From: a virus
Taxonomy: Duplodnaviria; Caudoviricetes
Virus record (IMG/VR): IMGVR_UViG_3300038393_001386
Coordinates: 901-64,900 of that record
DNA length: 64,000 bases
Direction: 5' to 3' (one strand)
Part shown: in pieces, positions 12,784 to 40,881 of the stretch
Layout: every line of letters starts with the position of its first letter
Numbering within the stretch: the first letter of the stretch is position 1
The notes under the pieces: generated by a model
Told to the model about the DNA's origin: nothing
Database searches by the model: none
What the model saw: the letters and a program-made list of their open reading frames with translations, nothing else
Made by a program: the position numbers and the translations under genes

Positions 12784-12960
12784 TTATTCACCTTTCACAT
12801 TTGAGGAGCTATCTATCGCAAGATCGCGGATGCGGGTAATGATTACATGCGCCTCATCCACCAGCGAGACATTTGGATCTGCAAGAACCTCGTCGCAGAT
12901 CTGTATCACTTCCTCTAGTGTCTCCAGGCGCGCATGCTGCCGGACCTCTTTTTCATTCAT
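12784..12960 (-). CDS. Hypothetical protein
   Basis: MNEKEV...; ends IDSSSNVKGE at a GA-N7-TC site. Confidence 0.5.
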   Translation of the reverse strand: MNEKEVRQHARLETLEEVIQICDEVLADPNVSLVDEAHVIITRIRDLAIDSSSNVKGE

Positions 12961-13446: not shown

Positions 13447-13632
13447 ATGACGCATCCGACTCCAGAACAGATCCGCAAGGCCCGCGATGCTGTGGGCCTG
13501 TCGCAGACTACTGCCGCCGAGCTAATCCACTCCACCATGCGAACCTGGCAGGATTGGGAGGCCGGCAAAGCCAAGATGCATCCGGGTTTGTGGGAATTAT
13601 TCGCCATTAAGTCGAAGTCCCTTCGCCGTTAG
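13447..13632 (+). CDS. XRE-family helix-turn-helix protein
   Basis: PEQIRKARDAVGLSQTTAAELI...WQDWEAG. Confidence 0.8.
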   Translation: MTHPTPEQIRKARDAVGLSQTTAAELIHSTMRTWQDWEAGKAKMHPGLWELFAIKSKSLRR

Positions 13633-13912
13633 CATGGGATGTGGCATCAAGCGCAGCCACCAACTGTTTAAACGCCTGCTCGGTGTGATAGCGGCCCTTG
13701 ACCTTCACCAGATTGTGAACCGCCTTCATCACGGCATTAATGCGATCCGTGCGATATGTGCTGTAATCCGCGTCCATGCCAGTGTCGTACTCATAGTCCG
13801 GGTCCGAGACGATGGAATCGATAATCTGCAATTCCAGGCTCAGCCGGGCCTTCTGGCTGATTAACGCTTGCAGCTCTGGATGCCGCCAATCAATGTCCTG
13901 CTTCTTATCCAT
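13607..13912 (-). CDS. Hypothetical protein (array A module)
   Basis: MDKKQDIDW...LDATSHANG; ends at the TGCCACA site. Confidence 0.6.
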   Translation of the reverse strand: MDKKQDIDWRHPELQALISQKARLSLELQIIDSIVSDPDYEYDTGMDADYSTYRTDRINAVMKAVHNLVKVKGRYHTEQAFKQLVAALDATSHANGEGTST

Positions 13913-14171
13913 TGCTCTCTCCATCTGATGGGACATCTGTTGTTTGCTCAAGCGAAAACAGGTAGCGCAACCAGCTCTGTGCGCCGCCTTTGGTCAGATG
14001 ATCCCGATCATGTGAATCAGCAACCCATTCGGGCCAGTAACCATCGAAGCCTGACATTTCCAGATGCCGACACATATCCTTGAGTGTGATGCTGCTGGTT
14101 GCGCCATACAGTTGCAGGAAAGTTCGGACTGCGCGGTTCTCGCCATCATCGTCCAGCAGTTTTCTAGTCAT
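13905..14171 (-). CDS. Hypothetical protein (array A module)
   Basis: MTRKLLDDDG...TDVPSDGESNG; CAGGAG RBS. Confidence 0.6.
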   Translation of the reverse strand: MTRKLLDDDGENRAVRTFLQLYGATSSITLKDMCRHLEMSGFDGYWPEWVADSHDRDHLTKGGAQSWLRYLFSLEQTTDVPSDGESNG

Positions 14172-14203
14172 TTGATTTTTCTCCTGTTGCTTCCGATAGT
14201 GCC

Positions 14204-14371
14204 TCAAACGTCAATTAGCGCCGACACTTCGACGACGGCATCTGGATACTTCTCGCGCAATGATTCGGCATATTCGCAAGCCTCATCAAAATCGTTGAAT
14301 TCCTTGGTGTGACAGGCCGAGCAAAAAACGGAGTAGCAGACCACAAGCAAGGTTGACCATTGTGATTTCAT
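14204..14371 (-). CDS. Small hypothetical protein (array A module)
   Basis: Hand translation MKSQWSTLL...VSALIDV (55 aa); stop lies in the GGCACTA site. Confidence 0.45.
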   Translation of the reverse strand: MKSQWSTLLVVCYSVFCSACHTKEFNDFDEACEYAESLREKYPDAVVEVSALIDV

Positions 14372-14586
14372 TCCTGTTCTCCCTTTGATGATCCATCTGT
14401 CGCAAGGCGTTTAATGCGGTCTTCGCATCTAGAGCATCCGCAATGTTTTCTAGCTTCTTCTAGGGCGGCAGCGCGGGAGGCTTGCCATGCTCTCCAAGCA
14501 TCGGCGGTTCCGGTGTCTGCATATTCGCCATCAACCATATCCAGCGGCGATCCCCACCAGCCCTCGAATTGCTCCCGTATAGTCAT
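14368..14586 (-). CDS. Hypothetical protein (array A module)
   Basis: RAAALEEA motif; ends ATDGSSKGEQE. Confidence 0.6.
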   Translation of the reverse strand: MTIREQFEGWWGSPLDMVDGEYADTGTADAWRAWQASRAAALEEARKHCGCSRCEDRIKRLATDGSSKGEQE

Positions 14587-15215
14587 TTCGGCTCCGATGA
14601 ATTAGAGGGGTGATCAAGCGGGTCATTGATACCTGGACCACAGCAGGGAACAAAGTGCATCATTCCAGCCGTGCGATGACATGGACAGGCGCAGTCGTTA
14701 TATGCCGGATTGCATCCTTCCCGGTTTGGCGCAATCAAGTTGCCGGTATCAGATGAACGATCCAGCGCAGCAGTGACGGCAACCCGGGCATATTCGCGCA
14801 TTTGGTCGGCAGTAAAAACGTCATTCCTTCGGCTTGCGTGGAATGGTAATTGGGCAAACGGGCCGGTTCTGTTCTCATTCCAGTAGCCATCATCGAAAAT
14901 GGTTCCGACCGGCGCGGGCAACTCGGCAGATGCAGGAGATGGGCGATCCGATGCAAGACCGCGCAAGTGCTGAATGCAGGAGCGGATTTCATCCAATCCA
15001 CCCGGCCACGCATCGAAAAATTCTTTGAGAATCCGTGCAGCGCCATCGGCCGTCATCGAATACTTGCCGCCATGCTCACTTTCCCATTCGACATCGGCGT
15101 GTGCTGCTGTAAGCCGCTCGATCTCTCCAATCAACTTGAGGACACCGGAAGCCTTGAGCACGAAATCATCGGGCTGGACCTCGCACATCTCCTTCATTTT
15201 TGCCAAATCAATCAT
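14583..15215 (-). CDS. Three-module mosaic protein (array A)
   Basis: Modules joined in frame by SDRPS, LDRSS and LDHPS. Confidence 0.65.
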   Translation of the reverse strand: MIDLAKMKEMCEVQPDDFVLKASGVLKLIGEIERLTAAHADVEWESEHGGKYSMTADGAARILKEFFDAWPGGLDEIRSCIQHLRGLASDRPSPASAELPAPVGTIFDDGYWNENRTGPFAQLPFHASRRNDVFTADQMREYARVAVTAALDRSSDTGNLIAPNREGCNPAYNDCACPCHRTAGMMHFVPCCGPGINDPLDHPSNSSEPK

Positions 15216-15351
15216 TGTTTTCCTCTCCTGCGTTAGCTGGTCTATCCGTTCGGCGCTCCGCTCGCCAATGCTTGAATTTGGCCACTGGCAGCAACAGCAC
15301 ATAGCTCACCAGATAAAACACCAATCCGATAACGTCTTTGATGGTCCTCAT
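15208..15351 (-). CDS. Small membrane protein (array A module)
   Basis: Hand translation MRTIKDVIGLVFYLVSYVLLLPV...TDRPA (47 aa); GGAGGA RBS. Confidence 0.45.
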   Translation of the reverse strand: MRTIKDVIGLVFYLVSYVLLLPVAKFKHWRAERRTDRPANAGEENND

Positions 15352-15369
15352 GTATCCTCCGATGGTCGA

Positions 15370-15567
15370 TTACATGCGCGGCCTCAGCAGCATCGCCTTG
15401 ACATGGCTGTATCCCGCGCGGCGGCACGCTTCGTAATCTTCGGGCTGCAGGTAAAACACCCGCTGCGTCAGCGGCGTGCCGATCCGGTTGTAATAGTCAT
15501 CCTGCTGCATCACCTGCTTGCCGTAAGTTGCCCACATCCGATGCGCCACTTGGATATCGCGTGTCAT
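15370..15567 (-). CDS. Hypothetical protein
   Basis: MTRDIQVAH...; GGAGA RBS. Confidence 0.5.
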   Translation of the reverse strand: MTRDIQVAHRMWATYGKQVMQQDDYYNRIGTPLTQRVFYLQPEDYEACRRAGYSHVKAMLLRPRM

Positions 15568-15824
15568 ACGGTCTCCTTTCTGCCTTCGCGCAGCGCGATC
15601 AGCTCGCGCCGGAAATCCCGGTTGCGCAGCGCACAATTCACCATCATCAGCCGCAAGTCATCGATCCGGCTCTGCCGGTCGCGCAGCAATTCCTCCAGCA
15701 TCGCGATCCGCGCCGCCCGCGCTTTCAACTCGTCCTGCTGGCGCAGGAATTCCGCCTGGTACTGCTGCGCCTGCCGCTCCAGTTCCTCTATCCGGCGCTC
15801 CAGCGTGGAACGGTGGATCGTCAT
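15564..15824 (-). CDS. Coiled-coil hypothetical protein
   Basis: LERRIEELERQ heptad pattern. Confidence 0.55.
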   Translation of the reverse strand: MTIHRSTLERRIEELERQAQQYQAEFLRQQDELKARAARIAMLEELLRDRQSRIDDLRLMMVNCALRNRDFRRELIALREGRKETV

Positions 15825-16411
15825 GCCAGCAACTCCAGACAACGCGCTCGCAGCGCCTCCGTTTCCGCTATGGTCGGCATATAGGTGTGCGGCTGCAGGA
15901 AATAATCGTCCAGATCGACCGGCAGATATAAATTCGAGGTATCGTGCGTGTCCGCGCACTGGAACAGTCCCAGCAGGATCGGCGCATCGCCCATGCAACG
16001 CAGCGTGTGGATTTCCTGGTCCGTCACTTCATACGCCTGTTCGCTCGGCGTGAGCCGTTCCTGCTTGCCAGCCAGCGCCACCCGTCCCGCCGGCTCGCGG
16101 TGCCGCGTTTCGGCGCGATACAAGTATTGCTGCCAGTCGCCATGCGCCGACTCATCTGCCCGGAACCGCCAATGCTCCAGGCTGCCGTGCAACACGAAGG
16201 TGGAAAAGCCATAGCGGTGCGAATGCGGATGGACCAGAAAGCCGCTGTTCGGGTTGATCGGCTTGTCGATCAGGTACATCTTGACGGTCAGCTCGAAGCT
16301 GCGATGCAGGCACAGGTAATGCATGCCATCGACATGGTAGTTCATCGAGGAATGGGGGCGCATCTGCTTCGGATCGAGTTGATGGAGCAATGCCTTGAAG
16401 ACAGTGCGCAT
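15821..16411 (-). CDS. Cupin-like protein
   Basis: VHPHSHRYGFSTFVLHGSLEH and EIHTL His-rich cupin pattern. Confidence 0.55.
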   Translation of the reverse strand: MRTVFKALLHQLDPKQMRPHSSMNYHVDGMHYLCLHRSFELTVKMYLIDKPINPNSGFLVHPHSHRYGFSTFVLHGSLEHWRFRADESAHGDWQQYLYRAETRHREPAGRVALAGKQERLTPSEQAYEVTDQEIHTLRCMGDAPILLGLFQCADTHDTSNLYLPVDLDDYFLQPHTYMPTIAETEALRARCLELLA

Positions 16412-16420
16412 GGCGTTCTC

Positions 16421-16609
16421 CTAATGGTAGAGGCGGTGGGCCTCGATGCAATGGCGCAGCACCATGTAGCGGAAGGGCAGCGGCAGTTCGTCCCATGCCG
16501 ATGGCTCTTGCGCGAGCATGCGCATGACCATCAAGGCCACACGGGAGCGTTCTTCACACAGCGCTTGCTGGCGCGGCGTGCGCTGCGGCAACAAGGCGAG
16601 CGCGCTCAT
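16421..16609 (-). CDS. Hypothetical protein
   Basis: Coupled ORF in the early operon. Confidence 0.45.
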   Translation of the reverse strand: MSALALLPQRTPRQQALCEERSRVALMVMRMLAQEPSAWDELPLPFRYMVLRHCIEAHRLYH

Positions 16610-16830
16610 GATGGCACCCGCAAGTCTGCGCCTTGCAGCGGCAAGCCGTGTTTCGTCAGCGCATGGGTGGCCAGCTTGAAGCCATCGCGCAGCGCGGATT
16701 CGTTGTCCTTGCCCAGCAAGTGGTAATAGACGGCAGTGCGCAGCGTTTGCAGCGCACGCACCAAATCCTCGTGGCAATCCATGCAGGTGCAGGCATGGCG
16801 AATCATGTCTTCATCCAAGTCAATATTCAT
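16606..16830 (-). CDS. Hypothetical protein
   Basis: MNIDLDEDM...; GGGAG RBS. Confidence 0.5.
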   Translation of the reverse strand: MNIDLDEDMIRHACTCMDCHEDLVRALQTLRTAVYYHLLGKDNESALRDGFKLATHALTKHGLPLQGADLRVPS

Positions 16831-16877
16831 TGATCGTCTCCCGATCCGGTAATGATACTGCATTCGTGGACGTTAAA

Positions 16878-16892
16878 CTACCAAAATGGTTG
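16878..16892. promoter_or_regulatory. CTACC-N5-GGTAG-type operator (variant)
   Basis: CTACC AAAAT GGTTG in an AT-rich intergenic gap. Confidence 0.55.
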
Positions 16893-16915
16893 CATAAAAG
16901 GGGAGCAAAAAAGGG

Positions 16916-17158
16916 TCAAAATGGCACATGCAGCACCGCCGGACTCTGCTTGCGCTGCCGCTTCTCTTGCGCCAGTTCCGCTTGCAAATGGCGCTGCCCT
17001 TCCGCCGTCCACAACAGGTCACGCAGCAGTTTTTGCGCGTGATACAGCGACGTGCGCCATTCCGCCTTGGCGGATTCTGGCGTGGCCGGGTTGTGCAACT
17101 GCTGGCGGCAATGATCAATGTGTCGCCGCGCCAAGGCGATTTTCAGCGCCATGCTCAT
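16916..17158 (-). CDS. Hypothetical protein
   Basis: 80 aa ORF, GGAGAG RBS. Confidence 0.5.
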   Translation of the reverse strand: MSMALKIALARRHIDHCRQQLHNPATPESAKAEWRTSLYHAQKLLRDLLWTAEGQRHLQAELAQEKRQRKQSPAVLHVPF

Positions 17159-17257
17159 GTCACTCTCCTTGCTAGGTGACGCCGGCGCACTTGCCGAGCA
17201 TCGAAATGATCCAAAGGATCGCTATCCCTGCCAATATGCCTCTTGCCAATGGTCCGA

Positions 17258-17476
17258 TCATGCTGGTTCTCCTTTCTTGACGCGCTTGGCTTCGTCGGTG
17301 ACCCGCTGATATACGCCATACATGGCGTCGGTCGCTTGCTGGAGCACCCGCTGGCGCAGCGCCAGATACTGCTGGTAGCGCAGCCCTTCGCGCTGTGCGC
17401 ACTCGCGGATTTCCGTGTCCAATTCCATCAGACGGTGCCGCATGCTGGTCAGCGTGAGTTTCGGTTCGCCGCTCAT
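17258..17476 (-). CDS. Hypothetical coiled-coil protein
   Basis: 72 aa ORF, AGGAG RBS. Confidence 0.5.
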   Translation of the reverse strand: MSGEPKLTLTSMRHRLMELDTEIRECAQREGLRYQQYLALRQRVLQQATDAMYGVYQRVTDEAKRVKKGEPA

Positions 17477-17485
17477 GTCATGCTC

Positions 17486-17815
17486 CTAGTCGATCCTGCT
17501 GCCGCATTCTTGCGCCACGGCTTGCAGGTTATGCTTCAATGCCAGGAACTGCTGCTTGGCCTGGTGCAGTTCGGCGTACGCGATGCGGATCGCTGCGTCG
17601 CACGCCTCATGCTCAGTCGCAAAGGCCTCGCTCCAGGAGTAGTAATAGGAGCGTGTCGATTTCTCCGGCACGCCGTAAAAGCCCCAACTGTGGCCCAGGC
17701 TGGTTTTCTCAATCTTGGTCAGATGCACCTTCAGCGGCAATTCGCCGTGCCGGGTCCGCTTGCGTCCCACGATCCACAAGACTGTCGGCATCGTGCCTTC
17801 GTAGTGGTATGCCAT
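17486..17815 (-). CDS. Hypothetical protein
   Basis: 109 aa; GGAGACCATCATG start motif. Confidence 0.55.
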   Translation of the reverse strand: MAYHYEGTMPTVLWIVGRKRTRHGELPLKVHLTKIEKTSLGHSWGFYGVPEKSTRSYYYSWSEAFATEHEACDAAIRIAYAELHQAKQQFLALKHNLQAVAQECGSRID

Positions 17816-17828
17816 GATGGTCTCCTAG

Positions 17829-18029
17829 TTACGCTTCCGTGACACTGAAATCATCGTCGGCATTGATGCCGAACCGCTCGAACGGCTCATCATCGGCCAC
17901 GCCGTAATTCGACAGCGCCGCCTCGCGCGCATAGGGTTCGGTCGTTTCTGTGACGACGCCAAGCCACAACGGACGATTCTCGCGCGTCACATACACATCC
18001 CACACTTTCAGATTCGCCAGCGATTTCAT
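17829..18029 (-). CDS. Hypothetical protein
   Basis: 66 aa; GGAGAACATCATG start motif. Confidence 0.55.
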   Translation of the reverse strand: MKSLANLKVWDVYVTRENRPLWLGVVTETTEPYAREAALSNYGVADDEPFERFGINADDDFSVTEA

Positions 18030-18068
18030 GATGTTCTCCTATGGCGGGCTTGCGCCCGCCGGGTGGTG

Positions 18069-18932
18069 TCAGGCTGTTTCCAGTTCCGGCAACCGCTCGC
18101 CGCGCTTCAATGCCGCCATGCCTTCGGCCAGCCGGGACAGCGCCTTGTTCAGCCGCACGTTTTCATTGACGCCGCCGACTTCGCGGGTGGTCGTTCGCTT
18201 GCCAGTGCTGGTGCGCCCCGGCAGTCCGCCGCGCACGATGTTTTCCTGCACGCGGTTAAAGGTCGTCCACAAGTCGTTGTTCTGATCCTGCGGACGGCGG
18301 ACGGTCAGCAAGCGGTCGGCATCTACTGGAGCCTTGCCGCCTTCCCACCGCAGTTCCTGCGCGGCGTTGGCTAGCAAGAGTTGTTCGGGCCGATCGAGCC
18401 GGATCGCCTTGTAATCGTCAATCGTTTCTTCGACTTGCTTGAGGTTATCGATCACGCGGAACGAGCCTTCGATCACGTCATCGACCACGTTGCCGGTGTG
18501 CCGGACTTTGACGTGCTCGCCGATTTCGCCCATGATCAAGCCGTTCTTGCAGATGTAGCGGAACACGCCTTCCATGATCTGGTATGAGCTGGTGCCGTCG
18601 TGGCTGTTGACCAGCACGATTTCTCCGGTTTCCTGACTGGAATGCAGCTTCGCATCCGGGTGCCGCAGGCGCAGCAAGTGCTTGGTGAAATCGCGCTTGC
18701 CTTCATCGCGGCACTTGGTTTGCCGGACCTCGAACACCTGGAAGCCTTCGCGGCGCAGGCCGGCGAGCACGTCCGAAGTCGGGATAAAGGCATAGCGTTG
18801 GCCGCGTGAGTCATGCGCGTGATCGGCAAAGATCGATGGCGCGTAACGGGCGATCGTGTCATCGTCCAGCGGGGTGGCCGATTGAAAAACGGTTTGATTC
18901 TTTTGTGCTCCATAGCGTACAAAGTTCAACAT
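18069..18932 (-). CDS. DUF932/DUF945-family protein
   Basis: IPTSDVLAGLRREGF, FTKHLLRLR, EIVLVNSHDGTSSYQ, NDLWTTFNRVQEN motifs. Confidence 0.85.
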   Translation of the reverse strand: MLNFVRYGAQKNQTVFQSATPLDDDTIARYAPSIFADHAHDSRGQRYAFIPTSDVLAGLRREGFQVFEVRQTKCRDEGKRDFTKHLLRLRHPDAKLHSSQETGEIVLVNSHDGTSSYQIMEGVFRYICKNGLIMGEIGEHVKVRHTGNVVDDVIEGSFRVIDNLKQVEETIDDYKAIRLDRPEQLLLANAAQELRWEGGKAPVDADRLLTVRRPQDQNNDLWTTFNRVQENIVRGGLPGRTSTGKRTTTREVGGVNENVRLNKALSRLAEGMAALKRGERLPELETA

Positions 18933-18971
18933 GATGGTTCTCCAAGGTTGTGGTCTAGTTCGGTCTGTCTG

Positions 18972-19012
18972 CTACCGTATTGGTAGTATATGATACCGTA
19001 TTAGGATGTCAA
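18972..19012 (-). promoter_or_regulatory. Leftward sigma70 promoter with overlapping operator
   Basis: Minus-strand TTGACA-16nt-TATACT; CTACC GTATT GGTAG at 18972-18986. Confidence 0.8.
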
Positions 19013-19041
19013 GGTAAAAAATGGTCGCAAATGTGAAAAAG

Positions 19042-19452
19042 TTAAGGCGTCTGCCGGGGCGTCCAATACACCAGCACGGGCGCTGCCGGGTCAGAGCACA
19101 AGCCACGATCATGCATCTTGCCATCGATCACGGTCACGATATGGTTGGGCAGCATTACCATATAGCGGCCTGTGCGATGCGTCGCCAGAAACTCGATCAG
19201 CATCATCGGCACAGGCGGGAAATGGTGCTCGCCAAAGTGATGGGCGACGGCGCTCATGCTGAGCGGATCGATCCCTTCCCTGTCTTGTCGGCCTGCATTG
19301 CGCAGGATGTGATGCGCGGTGCCATACGGCAGATCGGCGAAGACCGCCAAGGCGCGCACGCTGCAATCATTGTCTTCATGGGTATAGCCATCGAGATTGC
19401 GACCGCCATCCGTACTAGTGAGCAACATCGATTCCAACGCTTGCCGGTTCAT
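19042..19452 (-). CDS. Hypothetical protein
   Basis: NDCSVRALA...HIVTVIDG pattern; AGGAAAGGA RBS. Confidence 0.6.
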   Translation of the reverse strand: MNRQALESMLLTSTDGGRNLDGYTHEDNDCSVRALAVFADLPYGTAHHILRNAGRQDREGIDPLSMSAVAHHFGEHHFPPVPMMLIEFLATHRTGRYMVMLPNHIVTVIDGKMHDRGLCSDPAAPVLVYWTPRQTP

Positions 19453-19489
19453 GGTTCCTGTCCTTTCCTGACTAAACGACCATGAAGAC

Positions 19490-19517
19490 AGTATAGCTAC
19501 CAAATTGGTAGTATCAA
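19490..19517 (-). promoter_or_regulatory. Leftward promoter with operator between -35 and -10
   Basis: Minus-strand TTGATA-16nt-TATACT; CTACC AAATT GGTAG at 19497-19511. Confidence 0.8.
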
Positions 19518-19742
19518 GAGCCGAAGTGCGATTTCTCCAGACTTTTACAATGTATGCAACTTTCCAACAGTGTTGGCAATTTTCCAGCAGTTCCAGCGGA
19601 GCCGCTGGTGGGGAATTTTTTGCCCAAGAGCGCGCAAACGGGGCGCGATGCGCGACTGATTCAGGCGCAGTGCGACCGTTGGCCCCTTTTGGAATCAAGC
19701 ACTTGCGACGAAGTGCGACCTGTGTTTATCCTGCGCATGATT

Positions 19743-19801
19743 CTCGAAATCCAGTGTACGGTTATACCGTACCGAGGGTTCAAATCCCTCCCTTTCCGCC
19801 A
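19743..19801 (+). other. attP core: 3' part of tRNA-Ser(CGA)
   Basis: CTCGAAA anticodon loop, TCCAG stem half, long variable arm GTACGG-TTATA-CCGTAC, T-arm GAGGG-TTCAAAT-CCCTC, ends CCGCCA; no 5' half of the tRNA upstream. Confidence 0.8.
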
Positions 19802-19819
19802 CCAGACTCAGTTTCCTTG

Positions 19820-19849
19820 AAAGCGCCCACTAACCTCTGGGCGCTTTTT
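19820..19849. terminator. Bidirectional intrinsic terminator beside attP
   Basis: AAAGCGCCCA-8nt-TGGGCGCTTTTT. Confidence 0.8.
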
Positions 19850-20255
19850 CATTGGGGTGGTGGGGAATATTTTGACCATCGCCGTCTGCGTCCGATGTGG
19901 CATCCGATGCCAGGCAATGCAGAAACATTGCCTTCGCTTCGTCGGCTGTGAACAGGTTGGTGCCGATAGGCCAGCTCGGCGCGTATCCCCTCGCATCCGG
20001 TTCATGCTTGAACGAGATGCCGCAGTCGGGCGCGAAAGTCTTGGGCAGCGGCCAGCAAAGGAAACGGTTCACCATCGCATCGACATCAGTAGATGGACGA
20101 TTCGCCGGGTCGTCGTTGACGCCGGCTTGATGCCAGTGCAGTTCTTGCTTTCCGCAATTCGCGCACTCCGTCTTGCCAGAGCGCAGTAGGTTGAAGTGGA
20201 CGGAGCCACACTCGCAGGTATAGGCCATGTGATCGTGAAGGTTTTCGATGGTCAT
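19830..20255 (-). CDS. Two-module hypothetical protein (array B)
   Basis: Zn-finger-like N-module, NRPS junction, ends SDATS. Confidence 0.6.
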   Translation of the reverse strand: MTIENLHDHMAYTCECGSVHFNLLRSGKTECANCGKQELHWHQAGVNDDPANRPSTDVDAMVNRFLCWPLPKTFAPDCGISFKHEPDARGYAPSWPIGTNLFTADEAKAMFLHCLASDATSDADGDGQNIPHHPNEKAPRG

Positions 20256-20259
20256 TTTT

Positions 20260-20424
20260 TCATTGCTCTGATGGGTGATTTAGCGCGGCCAGCATTTCCC
20301 GCATTCCGTACAGCACATGCATGGTTTGCTGGTAATTCGCTTGCATCGCTCTTTCTCTTGGGTCAAGCTGCAACCGTCGCAACTGCTCGGCTTCGTACAG
20401 GTCAAGGAATTTAGCTGCGTCCAT
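20260..20424 (-). CDS. Small hypothetical protein (array B)
   Basis: MDAAKFL...LNHPSEQ. Confidence 0.5.
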   Translation of the reverse strand: MDAAKFLDLYEAEQLRRLQLDPRERAMQANYQQTMHVLYGMREMLAALNHPSEQ

Positions 20425-20590
20425 TGTTTTCCCCCTTTGCGTCTGATGGGACATCTGTTGCGACTTCTAGCATTGCTGCAAGTCCAAGCATTTCATCTAC
20501 GATAGGGAAACGTAGTTCCTTGTCTCCTGTCAGGATGTCCACAGCTTCGCGCAGGATGTTCGCTATATCTCGTAAGTCTTTGTTATTCAT
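20411..20590 (-). CDS. Small hypothetical protein (array B)
   Basis: Hand translation MNNKDLRD...ATDVPSDAKGENNGRS. Confidence 0.5.
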   Translation of the reverse strand: MNNKDLRDIANILREAVDILTGDKELRFPIVDEMLGLAAMLEVATDVPSDAKGENNGRS

Positions 20591-20751
20591 TCGTTTGCCT
20601 CCGATAGTGCCTCAAGCGCGGATTCAAGAATCTTGTGAATTCCCTCCCAATATCGGAGGTATTCATCTTCACCGTTGGCATATCGCGGAATAAGTCCAAC
20701 CTCAACTGCCTTCTTCATTGCCGCCGACACCATTTCTTCGGTTATTTGCAT
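20587..20751 (-). CDS. Small hypothetical protein (array B)
   Basis: Hand translation MQITEEMVSAAM...LEALSEANE. Confidence 0.5.
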   Translation of the reverse strand: MQITEEMVSAAMKKAVEVGLIPRYANGEDEYLRYWEGIHKILESALEALSEANE

Positions 20752-20975
20752 TTCGGCTCTCCCGAATCGGATGATCCATCTGTCGCAAGTGCGCGGATCT
20801 TGGCTGCTGCTCCGCAGTCGCCGTCATAACCCCACTGAATAGCATCGACCGCCTGCGCCGCTTCTTCCAGGGCGGCAGCGCGAATCGCCTGGGCGAACAG
20901 AAATGTTGCCTGGTTACCGAAGCCAACTTCATCGATGAACTTGTTGTGCAGGTCCGCTGCTTCTTTTTCTGTCAT
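20742..20975 (-). CDS. Hypothetical protein (array B)
   Basis: RAAALEEAA motif; ends ATDGSSDSGEPKCK. Confidence 0.6.
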   Translation of the reverse strand: MTEKEAADLHNKFIDEVGFGNQATFLFAQAIRAAALEEAAQAVDAIQWGYDGDCGAAAKIRALATDGSSDSGEPKCK

Positions 20976-21457
20976 TTCGGCTCCTTCGTATTAGAGGGGT
21001 GATCCGATGTGAGCAGATGCGCCACATCCTCAAATTTCACCCATTCGCCGTTTTCCTTGATTTCGATTATCGGAACAATCGGTTCATTGCGGCTTTCAGC
21101 GGTCACATAGAAGTTGTACCTTTTGATCGCAACAGATGAACGATCTGGTTTTTCGCCACTGTATAGCTCTGCATAAACCTCATCGGCAATTCGCTGCTGC
21201 TCTGCCTCTGTTTGGCATAGCGGGAACCGGCATAACGAATCAGATGGGCGATCCGATGCGGCCTTCAGTTCGCGCAATTCCCTTTCTGCTTTCATGGCGC
21301 GGTTTGCCCATTCATGGCGGCTTAGCACGGTGCAAGGAATGCATTCTTTTTGCACTCCGACTTTAATGAAATAATCAGGCTTTCCGGCTCCCGGATGCGG
21401 ATTGTCGGAAAGCGGCAAACCGCATTTATGGCAGCATCCTGGCTTCAATTCAGGCAT
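20972..21457 (-). CDS. Three-module mosaic protein (array B)
   Basis: Modules joined by SDRPS, PDRSS and SDHPS. Confidence 0.65.
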   Translation of the reverse strand: MPELKPGCCHKCGLPLSDNPHPGAGKPDYFIKVGVQKECIPCTVLSRHEWANRAMKAERELRELKAASDRPSDSLCRFPLCQTEAEQQRIADEVYAELYSGEKPDRSSVAIKRYNFYVTAESRNEPIVPIIEIKENGEWVKFEDVAHLLTSDHPSNTKEPK

Positions 21458-21483: not shown

Positions 21484-21711
21484 CTATCCGTTCGGCAGCC
21501 ACAGATCATACGGATCGCCGGTGTCCTGTGGTGTTTCCTGCTGGATCGCACGCTTGAGCCAATCCGGCACCGACTTTTTCGCTGCTTCATCATCCGAATA
21601 GGTGCCGACCTTCTTGCCATCGATCCACACTTCGACCATGCCATTCGCCAGCCGGGTCCGACGCACCATGTGGACTTCCGCAACCCGGCCATTGACATCC
21701 AGTATCTTCAT
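21484..21711 (-). CDS. Hypothetical protein
   Basis: 75 aa; its stop TAG lies inside the TAGACCA site. Confidence 0.55.
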   Translation of the reverse strand: MKILDVNGRVAEVHMVRRTRLANGMVEVWIDGKKVGTYSDDEAAKKSVPDWLKRAIQQETPQDTGDPYDLWLPNG

Positions 21712-24059: not shown

Positions 24060-24287
24060 TTATTCCCCATCCGGCACCATGCCGCACCATCCGCGCCCGG
24101 ATGGGACGCGCACGGGATCGGCCTTTAACATGACCTTTTCGCCTTCATTCGTTTGATAAACGATCTTGCGATCAATCCATTCAGTTTTCATTTCCTGTTG
24201 CCATGCCATACAAGCCGACCCTTGGCACTCGCGCTGCGTAGTGCAGCAGACATAAAGTTTCGCTTCAGCCTCATCAATCATTTTCAT
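24060..24287 (-). CDS. Hypothetical protein
   Basis: CQGSACMAW...GWCG motif common in small phage proteins. Confidence 0.6.
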   Translation of the reverse strand: MKMIDEAEAKLYVCCTTQRECQGSACMAWQQEMKTEWIDRKIVYQTNEGEKVMLKADPVRVPSGRGWCGMVPDGE

Positions 24288-25243
24288 TTGATCTTCCTCA
24301 CCGCCGCCGCCTTGGTCTGCAGCAGCAGATGCGCATAGCGCTGCGTGCTCCGTAAATCCTTGTGGCCCAATACCTGACCGATCGCATACAGGTCCACGCC
24401 TTCATTGGCCATCGCCGATGCCGTGCTGTGCCGCAGGTCGTGAAAGTGCAGGTGCGGATAGCCTGCCGCCTGTCTGGCCCGTTCCCATAGCCGCTGCATC
24501 CAGCGCTTCTTGTAGGGCAGCGGAAAATACTTTTGCAGCACCCACACCTTGGAATGCAAGGCCACGGTGCGCGCTTCGCCATTCTTGGTCTTGCGCAGAA
24601 ACACCGTGCCAGCCTGCCAGTCCGACGTGTGGCCGATGCTCATCATTTCGCCGATCCGCATGCCGGTGTAAAAGCCGAGCCGGATCAAGGCGCGGATTTC
24701 TCGGTTCTCGGCAGCCTTCGCGATGTCCAGCATCTGCTTTCTGGTGGCGTACACTTGCCGCTCATTCTTCACCGCCGGCATGGCGACCTTCAGCGCCAAG
24801 CCTTGGCCCTTGCCGTGGAATTCCTGCGCATAGCGGCAAGCCGCGCGCAGGTAGGACAGCTTGTTCTTGATCGATGCCGGCGACAACTGGCCGCGCATGT
24901 CCGCCGCGTAGTTCCTTGCCACGTCGCCCAGTTCATCCAGGTAGCGGCCCTTGTAAGCCCAGTGGATATGCGCCAGCTCGGCGCGCACGCCGGCGAAGTT
25001 CTTCAAGTCCGCCGCATGGTGTTCCAGGTACAGTTGCACGGCATCCTCGATCAAGTCGCGTGGTTGCTTGGCACCAGTTGCAATGGCGTACAGTTCCTTT
25101 TCCTGCCGGTGCGCGTAGGCTTGGGCTTGGGTTCGAGTCCAGCCTTGCGGAAGTAGTTTTCGAGTGCGGATTCGCTGGCCGGCGATATGCTTGTCGAACT
25201 CAAAGCACCAGCGACCCTTCTTTGCGTTGAAGTATGTCGGCAT
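24284..25243 (-). CDS. int: Tyrosine integrase
   Basis: Catalytic set: YTGMRIGE (R), LRKTKNG (K), HFHDLRH, LGHKDLRSTQRYAH. Confidence 0.95.
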   Translation of the reverse strand: MPTYFNAKKGRWCFEFDKHIAGQRIRTRKLLPQGWTRTQAQAYAHRQEKELYAIATGAKQPRDLIEDAVQLYLEHHAADLKNFAGVRAELAHIHWAYKGRYLDELGDVARNYAADMRGQLSPASIKNKLSYLRAACRYAQEFHGKGQGLALKVAMPAVKNERQVYATRKQMLDIAKAAENREIRALIRLGFYTGMRIGEMMSIGHTSDWQAGTVFLRKTKNGEARTVALHSKVWVLQKYFPLPYKKRWMQRLWERARQAAGYPHLHFHDLRHSTASAMANEGVDLYAIGQVLGHKDLRSTQRYAHLLLQTKAAAVRKIK

Positions 25244-26958: not shown

Positions 26959-27185
26959 TGAAAACTCTCCACCTGGTATTTTCCAGAGCGCACGCCGCGC
27001 TCCATGTTGCGCAGTTCGTGCGTGGCATCCTCGCCATGGATTCGCTCGTACCTGGCATAAATCGTGTCGCGCTGCGGATCGTCGGCCAGCAGGCACAACA
27101 GCGAGCGCAGCGCCGCCAGCTTGATATTCATGCAGGCTTGCCGGTACGCCGGCGAATTCCGGTAATCGGTGAAATCGGTCATCAT
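26955..27185 (-). CDS. Hypothetical protein
   Basis: 76 aa coupled ORF. Confidence 0.5.
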   Translation of the reverse strand: MMTDFTDYRNSPAYRQACMNIKLAALRSLLCLLADDPQRDTIYARYERIHGEDATHELRNMERGVRSGKYQVESFQ

Positions 27186-27574
27186 GGGTGCGGCCTGTCG
27201 AATGAAAACTCGATGCCTTTTTCCTGCACAGCATCGGCCATCACTTGCTCGGTATAGATCGCGTATTCAGCCATCGATAACGTTTCCGACGACAGCGCCT
27301 TGCCGGTCCGGTCATGCACGCCAATGAACTTGGCCTTGTAGTAGTCATGCCAGGTTTCCGCCGCAATGCCGGTCGCCTCGCTGATTTCCTTCAACACCGA
27401 GCCGTGATAGAAGCCGCGCTGCGCTGGTGAAATCGGCGCATCGAACGGATGCACCTGGATCACCAGCGGCTTGCCGGCGCTGGCCATCTGCCGCCAGTGC
27501 TCATTGAGCCAGCCGAGCATGCGACTGACATACTGCGCTTCGCGCAACACGAAAACCTTGACCATCATGCTCAT
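27182..27574 (-). CDS. NinB-like recombination protein
   Basis: ISPAQRGFYHGSVLKEIS...ETWHDYYK...SSETLSMAEYAIYTEQV. Confidence 0.7.
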   Translation of the reverse strand: MSMMVKVFVLREAQYVSRMLGWLNEHWRQMASAGKPLVIQVHPFDAPISPAQRGFYHGSVLKEISEATGIAAETWHDYYKAKFIGVHDRTGKALSSETLSMAEYAIYTEQVMADAVQEKGIEFSFDRPHP

Positions 27575-30667: not shown

Positions 30668-30695
30668 ATACTACTTAAACGGTAGCATTAGTCAA
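30668..30695 (-). promoter_or_regulatory. Leftward promoter with operator
   Basis: Minus-strand TTGACT-16nt-TAGTAT; CTACT TAAAC GGTAG at 30671-30685. Confidence 0.7.
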
Positions 30696-31230
30696 GTGAA
30701 TTTTGCGATTTTTTCGCCATTTTCAAGCGCTGCCGGTAATCGTCGCGGATCGCGATGATGTCCTCAATCGAGAGCGGTCGCGGATCGTGCCAGCATTCCA
30801 GAGCGCACACGCGATCCAGTCCGATCCGCTCGACCAGACCCAGCCGATACAGCACGGCATTGCCGGACTTGTGCTGGTTGCAGGGCACGCATTGCTTGTG
30901 GCAATTGTCTTCGTGGAACCGCAAGGTGGCATTTGCGCCCACCGAAATGTAGTGTCCAGCATCATAGGCTCCTGCATGATGTCTGCCGCACGAAATGCAG
31001 GGCAGATCGCGGTCGCGCCAGCGAATCCACGCATTGAACGCGGCCTGCGCCTCCTTGAGCCAGTCGCTGCGGCTTTTCAGCTTCTCGCGCCGCTCGCGGT
31101 CGGTGCCGCGTGCGATTCTCTTGGCTTCGGCAAGCGCCTTGGCGCATTCCAGCGAGCACGCCACCGCCAGCGACAGGATTGGCACAAACCAGTCGCGGCA
31201 ATGGCGGCAGCGGCGGCGCTTGACGGTCAC
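30688..31230 (-). CDS. ninG: NinG/Rap recombination endonuclease
   Basis: CRHC, CSLEC, AFNAWIRWRD..PCISCG, YDAGHY, FHEDNCHKQCVPCNQHKSGN. Confidence 0.92.
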   Translation of the reverse strand: MTVKRRRCRHCRDWFVPILSLAVACSLECAKALAEAKRIARGTDRERREKLKSRSDWLKEAQAAFNAWIRWRDRDLPCISCGRHHAGAYDAGHYISVGANATLRFHEDNCHKQCVPCNQHKSGNAVLYRLGLVERIGLDRVCALECWHDPRPLSIEDIIAIRDDYRQRLKMAKKSQNSLD

Positions 31231-40794: not shown

Positions 40795-40800
40795 CAGAAT

Positions 40801-40881
40801 GCGTGAGTAGCTCAAAAGGATAGAGCGCCGTCCTCAAATAGTCGAGACGGACATGCGGGTTCGAGTCCCGTCCACGCTCCA
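40801..40881 (+). tRNA. Atypical tRNA-like element (13-nt anticodon loop)
   Basis: GCGTG/CACGC acceptor, GCTC/GAGC D-stem, CCGTC/GACGG anticodon stem, GGGTTCGAGTCCC T-arm, terminal CCA; loop CTCAAATAGTCGA. Confidence 0.6.

Follow-up and report, generated by a model that had tools for sequence, protein, structure and literature searches.

The window analysed here is a 64,000-nucleotide (nt) stretch of a Caudoviricetes genome, nearly the whole 64.9 kb of the IMG/VR virus record IMGVR_UViG_3300038393_001386 (positions 901 to 64,900), and our subject is a series of sharply bounded 11-base-pair (bp) sites that punctuate two arrays of small genes within it. The phage is temperate. From ~34 kb down to 13.6 kb the genes lie on the minus strand, in a block that encodes a replication organiser, a DnaB-like helicase, NinG (30688-31230), Gp157, SSB, NinB (27182-27574), a SpoU methylase, a tyrosine recombinase (24284-25243) and two NinX proteins, together with numerous small ORFan genes with overlapping stops and starts. 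The two arrays consist of small accessory early genes on the minus strand and are syntenic: array A spans 13.6-15.35 kb and array B 19.8-21.7 kb. They are separated by an attP-like 3' tRNA-like fragment (~19736-19800), with a 4.4-kb block that includes a DUF932 gene between this fragment and array A. Searches of the array proteins against Pfam and PHROGs returned essentially no matches.

The sites form an ordered series of 11-mers that share one orientation, with no 11-mer repeated within an array. On the coding strand they fit GA[T/G]-N5-[A/C]TC, mostly in the form GAT-N4-CATC. Where a site lies within a gene, it is read as Asp/Glu-x-x-Ser (we name the sites after these four residues), and it is found either at a domain boundary or just before a C-terminal tail encoded by the ribosome-binding region of the next gene. 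DRPS, DRSS and NRPS are gene-internal, and six or seven site types stand at gene ends (Table 1). The window contains 24 matches to GAT-N4-CATC against 12.2 +/- 3.8 in shuffled sequences, none of which reached 24; 17 of the 24 fall within arrays A and B (with palindromic sites counted on both strands), and the excess is confined to the arrays.

A preliminary description of this DNA had reported a single reading phase for the intragenic sites, and we find that 10 of the 11 exact GAT-N5-ATC matches between 13.6 and 21.5 kb are indeed in phase 0. It had also placed most of the other sites a few codons before a stop, ahead of a ribosome-binding site and an overlapped start. This arrangement holds for DGSS, DVPS, DATS, NHPS and the array B copy of EALS, all located 23-34 nt ahead of a start codon that is preceded by a ribosome-binding site and overlaps or abuts the stop. 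It fails for EALS in array A, which follows the stop of a 55-amino-acid (aa) gene; the TGA of that gene overlaps the first two bases of the site, and no C-terminal tail is encoded there. A second correction concerns the site upstream of P1 and P2 (15236 and 21478), which is in frame in array A only, its array B copy spanning the TAG stop of a 75-aa gene.

Table 1. Proteins and 11-bp sites of the window (A and B, the two arrays; aa, amino acids).
Feature	Coordinates	Strand	Description
P1	14583..15215	-	210 aa; DRPS aa 90-93, DRSS 152-155, DHPS 201-204
P1 modules			1a = aa 1-40; 1b = 41-89; module 2 = 94-151; Cys-rich module 3 = 156-200
P2	20972..21457	-	161 aa; DRPS aa 69-72, DRSS 105-108, DHPS 152-155
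P2 modules			Zn-ribbon-like module 1 = aa 1-68; module 2 = 73-104; module 3 = 109-151; then DHPS and tail
141-aa protein	19830..20255	-	NRPS (aa 52-55) and DATS (aa 118-121) flank a conserved central domain
Site upstream of P1	15236..15246	-	One mismatch to the B and L007 copies; in frame, forming the DRPA tail of a 47-aa gene (15208-15351)
Site upstream of P2	21478..21488	-	Out of frame; spans the TAG stop of a 75-aa gene (21484-21711)
DRPS	14938..14948 (A), 21243..21253 (B)	-	11-mer identical in A, B and L007
DRSS	14752..14762 (A), 21135..21145 (B)	-	
DHPS	14605..14615 (A), 20994..21004 (B)	-	26 nt ahead of the start of a 72-aa gene (A) or 77-aa gene (B)
DGSS	14387..14397 (A), 20770..20780 (B)	-	Tails of the 72-aa gene 14368-14586 (A) and the 77-aa gene 20742-20975 (B)
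EALS, array A	14195..14205	-	Beyond the stop of a 55-aa gene (14204-14371), outside that protein
EALS, array B	20603..20613	-	Tail of a 54-aa gene (20587-20751)
DVPS	13927..13937 (A), 20445..20455 (B)	-	Tails of an 88-aa gene 13905-14171 (A) and a 59-aa gene 20411-20590 (B)
DATS	13638..13648 (A), 19894..19904 (B)	-	Tail of a 101-aa gene 13607-13912 (A); inside the 141-aa gene (B)
NRPS	20092..20102	-	Degenerate (AAT replaces GAT); array B only
NHPS	20270..20280	-	Degenerate; array B only; tail of a 54-aa gene (20260-20424)
DSSS	12803..12813	-	Beyond an inverted helix-turn-helix (HTH) gene pair; same 11-mer follows DVPS in L007

The proteins P1 (array A) and P2 (array B) share the skeleton module-DRPS-module-DRSS-module-DHPS-tail, as the preliminary description had proposed from the same open reading frames (ORFs). 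Its further claim that their modules are unrelated also stands: BLASTP aligns the two proteins in the linkers and tail only. Successive intragenic sites are spaced by multiples of three, as stated there (186 and 147 nt in P1, 108 and 141 nt in P2, and 198 nt from NRPS to DATS in the 141-aa ORF), and the sequence noted as common to positions 14582 and 20971 proved to be a 14-mer within a 34-bp island of 88% identity. The tail of P1 after DHPS is encoded by the ribosome-binding region, and its stop overlaps the next start. At the DNA level, blastn aligns arrays A and B in eight colinear islands of 13-51 bp with 78-100% identity and finds nothing alignable between them; the DNA between a given pair of sites differs between the arrays and is mostly non-homologous.

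Database matches to P1 and P2 are all partial, and one of them, P0002, led to a third array, on a 7.8-kb Logan contig from another metagenome (L007). The gene order of L007 is erf, ssb, ninB, a C5 methylase, small genes, an inverted HTH gene and an integrase, and the contig carries the 11-mers of the window in identical order. The series starts with GATAGACCATC upstream of the skeleton gene, followed by GATCGCCCATC (DRPS), GATCGTTCATC (DRSS), GATCACCCCTC (DHPS) and GATGGATCATC (DGSS), and ends with GAGGCACTATC (EALS), GATGTCCCATC (DVPS) and GATAGCTCCTC (DSSS, whose window copy is at 12803). SSB and NinB/Orf are encoded by both phages, and Erf is additionally encoded by L007. The two phages are only distantly related, with amino acid identities of 59% for SSB, 24% for NinB, 30-48% for the HTH protein and 24% for the integrase; nothing else scores. 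Beyond the sites themselves, the array B copy of DVPS and the translation start region downstream of it form a 36-bp stretch with 94% identity to L007.

The skeleton gene of L007 encodes a 200-aa protein with the same architecture as P1 and P2 and other modules (DRSS at aa 114-117, DHPS at aa 192-195). A complete DUF551 domain (PF04448) at aa 120-185 fills its DRSS-DHPS interval exactly, matching model positions 1-64 of 68 with 38.2 bits against a gathering cutoff of 22. The same interval holds a separate Cys-rich family in P1 and an unrelated 43-aa segment in P2, and interval lengths in the arrays range from 108 to 234 nt. The next interval, from DHPS to DGSS, is occupied by a cassette (genes of 72, 77, 92 and 101 aa) that is homologous in all arrays, with 31-41% identity. 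In L007 this cassette is present as two tandem paralogues, the first of which ends with a degenerate DGSS site with two or three mismatches (L007 3440-3470) and the second with an exact one; a site located away from the array joint may decay.

We found that the modules of P1 behave as independent units. An exhaustive phmmer search of 1.84 billion representative proteins with P1 identified 58 foreign matches, all of them partial and most confined to one of four segments: aa 1-40, aa 41-90 (with many stand-alone proteins of 63-88 aa), aa 96-153, and the Cys-rich aa 160-200 (with many stand-alone proteins of 59-81 aa). For three of these segments there are also families of small stand-alone proteins, 59-88 aa in size overall. 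Three of the four segment boundaries (~aa 90-96, 153-160 and 200) coincide with DRPS, DRSS and DHPS. The Cys-rich mini-domain (aa 156-200; window 14616-14750, minus strand) has a C-x-C-x-C-H ... H ... C-C pattern, ~35 matches among the representative proteins and no match in Pfam, and is probably a phage domain, so far undescribed, that binds metal. The families represented by aa 41-90 and 96-153 also lack a name.

Recurrence of single modules beside other neighbours, which the preliminary description had anticipated, is therefore seen for the segments of P1, in other proteins as well as alone; the accompanying expectation that they would keep their flanking D-x-x-S cores does not hold outside this lineage. 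Module 1 of P2 similarly recurs in P0004, P0005 and P0006 with other partners, and similarity stops within a few residues of DRPS. The P2 searches otherwise gave no stand-alone short homologues and no tblastn match among GenBank phages, and for P2 aa 72-152 the ESM Atlas returned only scores of <=0.82, which are uninformative. Phage homologues of the 141-aa protein span aa 15-115, 47-115 or 61-115, placing NRPS inside the longest match and just ahead of the start of the shortest.

We also predicted the structure of P1 with AlphaFold from a hand-checked alignment of 14 sequences. The model has a low overall predicted TM score (pTM = 0.31). It is confident at aa 41-90 and in some stretches of aa 100-158, whereas aa 91-100, 158-165 and 200-210 score low. 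Confidence is thus low after DRPS, after DRSS and across DHPS; DRSS sits at the end of a predicted helix, and module 3 is poorly modelled. With confident blocks parted by low-confidence stretches near the sites, the modelled P1 resembles beads on a string. These data support P1 and P2 as in-frame chains of independent modules with joints conserved at the level of DNA.

To compare conservation of the joints with that of their surroundings, we aligned seven sites from arrays A, B and L007, taking as flanks the sequence beyond 3 nt on either side. In the cores, 76 of 77 bases are invariant in all three arrays, against 17% of flanking positions three-way and 35-38% in pairwise comparisons. Core position 6, a third codon position in phase 0 that is four-fold degenerate at most sites, is invariant at all seven sites, while position 12, the third base of the Ser codon located one base outside the core, is invariant at only two of seven. 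Two distinct sites are read as DRPS, one with AGA and the other with CGC for Arg, and each codon choice is kept in all arrays. Two sites are maintained even in arrays where they are untranslated or fall out of frame. The first site of the series lies in an in-frame tail in array A, across a TAG stop in array B, and over the stop of the methylase gene in L007. Selection on the peptide cannot explain this pattern, since silent core positions are invariant and sites are kept out of frame. The uniform reading phase can be understood from the DNA motif itself. In phase 0 all the 11-mers encode D, E, R, P, S, G, T, H, A, V or L, and in the other two phases I, M, W, C or stop, so that placement in coding sequence would be tolerable only in phase 0, and only in linkers and tails.

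These observations, namely the anatomy of the sites, their conservation as DNA, the independence of the modules and the differing modules between the same ordered sites in three arrays, would be accounted for if the sites were in-register crossover points for exchange between phages, with D-x-x-S being merely their only linker-compatible translation. We assign this reading a probability of about 55%. It is favoured because arbitrary, position-specific inner bases persist at silent positions, exactly at the edges of the replaced segments. A module between two intact sites would replace the content between the same two sites of another, related phage, giving in-frame chimeras such as P1 and P2 and preserving translational coupling. 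Since the partner DNAs would have to match at the site, cassettes with intact sites could spread and those with mutated sites could not. The preliminary description had proposed that exchange yields combinatorial fusion proteins. The third allele in L007, with other modules between the same ordered sites, strengthens the idea of exchange; free combination is not indicated, because each site is unique to its position and only in-register (allelic) exchange, rather than exchange between different sites, is suggested.

We infer both recombination at the sites and an enzyme responsible for it from the sequences. An outer motif common to all sites around an inner sequence specific to each position favours an enzyme that recognises sequence and checks homology, such as a tyrosine recombinase that needs identity in the overlap, or cleavage within the site after which matching ends are rejoined. 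For tyrosine recombinases the overlap that must be identical is 6-8 bp long, and bipartite targets shaped like these sites are known among restriction enzymes (the type IIB enzyme Hin4I, GAY-N5-VTC, is one). In a more specific version, which we consider possible but doubtful, a phage or host enzyme would recognise the outer GA(T)...(A)TC and cut or exchange strands within the unique inner 5-7 bp. Each site would then rejoin only the matching site of a phage that co-infects the cell or of a resident prophage, and cassettes would be swapped in register and in frame. Such addressed exchange would be a natural counterpart, by analogy, of ordered assembly by restriction and ligation, or of recombinase-mediated cassette exchange between heterospecific sites.

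Several points weigh against exchange at the sites. The case for it rests on comparative evidence, in which no recombinant junction was seen, and the sites are carried by two independent phage lineages only, with three arrays between them. We found no further arrays in IMG/VR, JGI metagenomes, GTDB genomes or 401 Burkholderiales genomes, and the DRSS-gap-DHPS pattern had no match in either the JGI metagenomes or the 401 Burkholderiales genomes. The sites lack conserved recombinase-binding arms on either side. The same modules are joined elsewhere without D-x-x-S cores; in the distant protein P0029 the tail of P1 module 2 adjoins module 3 with no DRSS core, so this joint may predate its site. 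P1 also has a module boundary that the preliminary description had missed, at aa 40/41, which coincides with a breakpoint relative to P0002 and has no site. A 23-bp stretch encoding R-A-A-A-L-E-E-A (window 14453-14475 and 20860-20882; L007 3335-3361 and 3613-3637) is near-identical as DNA in the four diverged paralogues of the DHPS-DGSS cassette (31-41% aa identity; phrog_343/PF26207-like), yet lacks the GAT...ATC motif. The integrase is weakened as a common exchange enzyme by the 24% identity between the integrases of the two phages; the sole tyrosine recombinase of the window (24284-25243) matches the general Phage_integrase family. Finally, plain homologous recombination fits less well because 11 bp is well under the minimal pairing segments that have been reported, 31-34 bp for RecA and 23-27 bp for Red-beta (PMC3945230).

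Other searches for the sites gave the following results. The only other IMG/VR contig with the exact DRPS 18-mer (L006) has it in another frame beside a terminase gene, and we judged this match to be chance. IMG/VR contains no relatives of the 72- and 77-aa genes; the 23-mer of these genes occurs at no viral, four metagenome and seven genome loci, none of which has the 11-mers. The sites are also absent from the contig that encodes P0004 (L025) and from the Cupriavidus and Ralstonia prophages that carry P2 module 1 (L009 and L010).

We weighed the exchange reading against four alternatives. The 11-mers could be cis-acting signals, bound by a regulator, acting as a stoperator-like roadblock, or serving as processing or pause sites, and they would then be retained by selection as illegitimate recombination turned over the modules around them. 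This is unlikely. In its favour, the sites share a loose common motif, all face the same way with respect to transcription and are concentrated in two segments of early operons, the gene-end copies precede the next start by a fairly constant 23-34 nt, and a conserved HTH gene adjoins the array in both phages. A reader of GAT...ATC, however, would not need position-specific inner bases, yet these are invariant at silent positions in distant phages, and random breakpoints would hardly retain a precise 11 bp between replaced segments seven or eight times. The internal sites are followed by no start codon, no site has a promoter- or terminator-like match, and the window contains no complementary, guide-like copies of the 11-mers elsewhere, so we rejected a guide function for them. 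Also rejected was a hairpin in which the pyrimidine-rich half of the site masks the Shine-Dalgarno sequence: inspection showed weak, inconsistent pairing, and no start follows the internal sites.

More doubtful still is common descent of the three arrays without exchange, in which everything would have diverged except for constrained short stretches. The strictly conserved order of the sites and the homology of the DHPS-DGSS cassette in all arrays are as expected from descent. Against it, the DRSS-DHPS interval holds different families in L007, P1 and P2 rather than diverged copies of one, interval lengths vary over 108-234 nt, and the constraint on the 11-mers at the DNA level would still lack an explanation.

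We regard it as very improbable that D-x-x-S is conserved at the protein level as a functional peptide, whether a flexible linker or a protease site in a polyprotein. Stand-alone homologues of P1 segments exist, as polyprotein processing would predict, and the motif does lie in linkers and tails. A cleavage motif of this kind would be conserved as peptide with free synonymous variation, whereas here the silent core positions are fixed and an adjacent silent position varies; the two DRPS-reading sites retain different Arg codons, two sites are kept where they are untranslated in that frame, and the Ser codons of the cores are rare in the window phage (TCT 10%, TCA 12%). A chance pattern or assembly artefact, for which we found no support, can be dismissed for practical purposes: the sequence is identical in independent JGI assemblies, two Logan contigs have the same gene order around P1 (from gene calls), shuffles never reach the observed motif count, and the unrelated contig L007 has seven of the 11-mers, exact and in the same order.

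Exchange at these sites would have partial precedents. The modular theory of lambdoid phages describes conserved boundary or linker sequences between modules (PMC3029335, PMC3945230). Like the present sites, those linkers are short conserved DNA that joins non-homologous modules, a proposed place of recombination, and located in accessory early regions of temperate phages; in the sense of short DNA conserved between phages with non-homologous sequence on both sides, the 11-mers are linkers (76/77 against 17% in the flanks). The classical linkers lie between genes and lack individual identities, while the sites here are 11 bp long, sharply bounded, unique to their position and fixed in order, with several inside genes at domain boundaries. 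It has been debated for decades whether short linkers or random illegitimate joining give rise to phage mosaics, and clear linkers are rare.

In T4-type phages, short repeats termed PeSLs punctuate hyperplastic regions of small ORFans, and recombination between PeSLs shuffles genes (PMC2839356, PMC4122927). PeSLs combine a promoter and a terminator, are intergenic and all alike, and any pair can recombine, unlike the sites described here, which are mutually distinct, lie mostly inside ORFs where they are translated, and have no promoter- or terminator-like match. The T-even adhesin gp38 has hypervariable segments parted by conserved glycine-rich motifs in fixed order, and exchanges map to the conserved parts (PMC3157838). 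It resembles P1 and P2 in having intragenic, conserved short motifs between interchangeable variable segments; its motifs, however, form the structural core of one domain and are constrained as protein, whereas the joints here link independent domains and are constrained as DNA. Cluster K mycobacteriophages have start-associated sequences with one repeated 13-bp motif by the start codon (PMC3203893). These too are short conserved DNA just upstream of many starts, but they are not individually distinct, intragenic or linked to module swaps.

Among site-specific recombination systems, several were compared. In those of the lox/FRT type, recombinase-binding arms of 9-13 bp surround an inner 6-8 bp overlap that must match, and heterospecific versions have been engineered for cassette exchange. 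A common outer element with inner bases that must match the partner would let sites pair only with their own kind, which is the barcode pattern seen here: every site has the outer GA(T)...(A)TC, around inner bases that are position-specific and invariant. The difference is that only 2-3 bp per side are common to all sites, and neither binding arms nor a dedicated enzyme were identified. Shufflons and invertases (Rci/sfx, Gin/Cin) use identical inverted repeats within one genome and an adjacent recombinase gene. Their sites within an ORF likewise yield alternative in-frame ends; the sites of the arrays, unlike theirs, have the same orientation and are unique per array, and exchange would be between genomes. 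Integrons are distinguished by attC hairpins of 57-141 bp and IntI; here we find 11-bp conservation without a dyad, and only a general Phage_integrase. What sets the present sites apart from these known cases is the combination of individually distinct, ordered sites, very short length with sharp bounds, constraint on DNA, and the location of several inside proteins.

The locus thus has seven or more sharp 11-bp joints kept at silent positions between phages with 24-59% identical proteins. If exchange were shown, the locus would allow direct tests of directed in-frame domain shuffling among the accessory genes of phages, and might reveal an enzyme with programmable short-site specificity. The array genes likely function in host takeover or anti-defence. 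Apart from the sites, P1 holds three undescribed mini-domain families that are widespread as stand-alone phage proteins.

The tRNA-like fragment between the arrays (19736-19800, plus strand) resembles a tRNA 3' half with a T-arm and CCA end, apparently tRNA-Ser-like, although neither ARAGORN nor Rfam gave a call for it. In the P1-bearing Logan contigs, the gene beyond the 136-aa gene (19042-19455) differs from that in the window. This difference suggests that the fragment is attP, and that arrays A and B come to lie at opposite prophage ends. The block that separates them seems to be independently promoted, as it has two strong sigma-70-like promoter matches on the minus strand (18985-19012 and 19490-19517; 11/12 and 10/12), which precede the DUF932 gene and the 136-aa gene.

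An independent 62.6-kb assembly of the same phage (L012, JGI contig Ga0395903_0000244) begins at window position 15268, so that its end lies 22 nt upstream of where array A has its first site. This start may reflect a break of the assembly graph at a polymorphic joint, or be due to chance alone. Elsewhere in the window, ARAGORN called a tRNA at 40800-40880 (plus strand) with a four-base anticodon (caaa) and undetermined identity, for which the Rfam tRNA score is 39 bits. GATC occurs 421 times in the 64 kb, ~1.8x a simple estimate from base composition.

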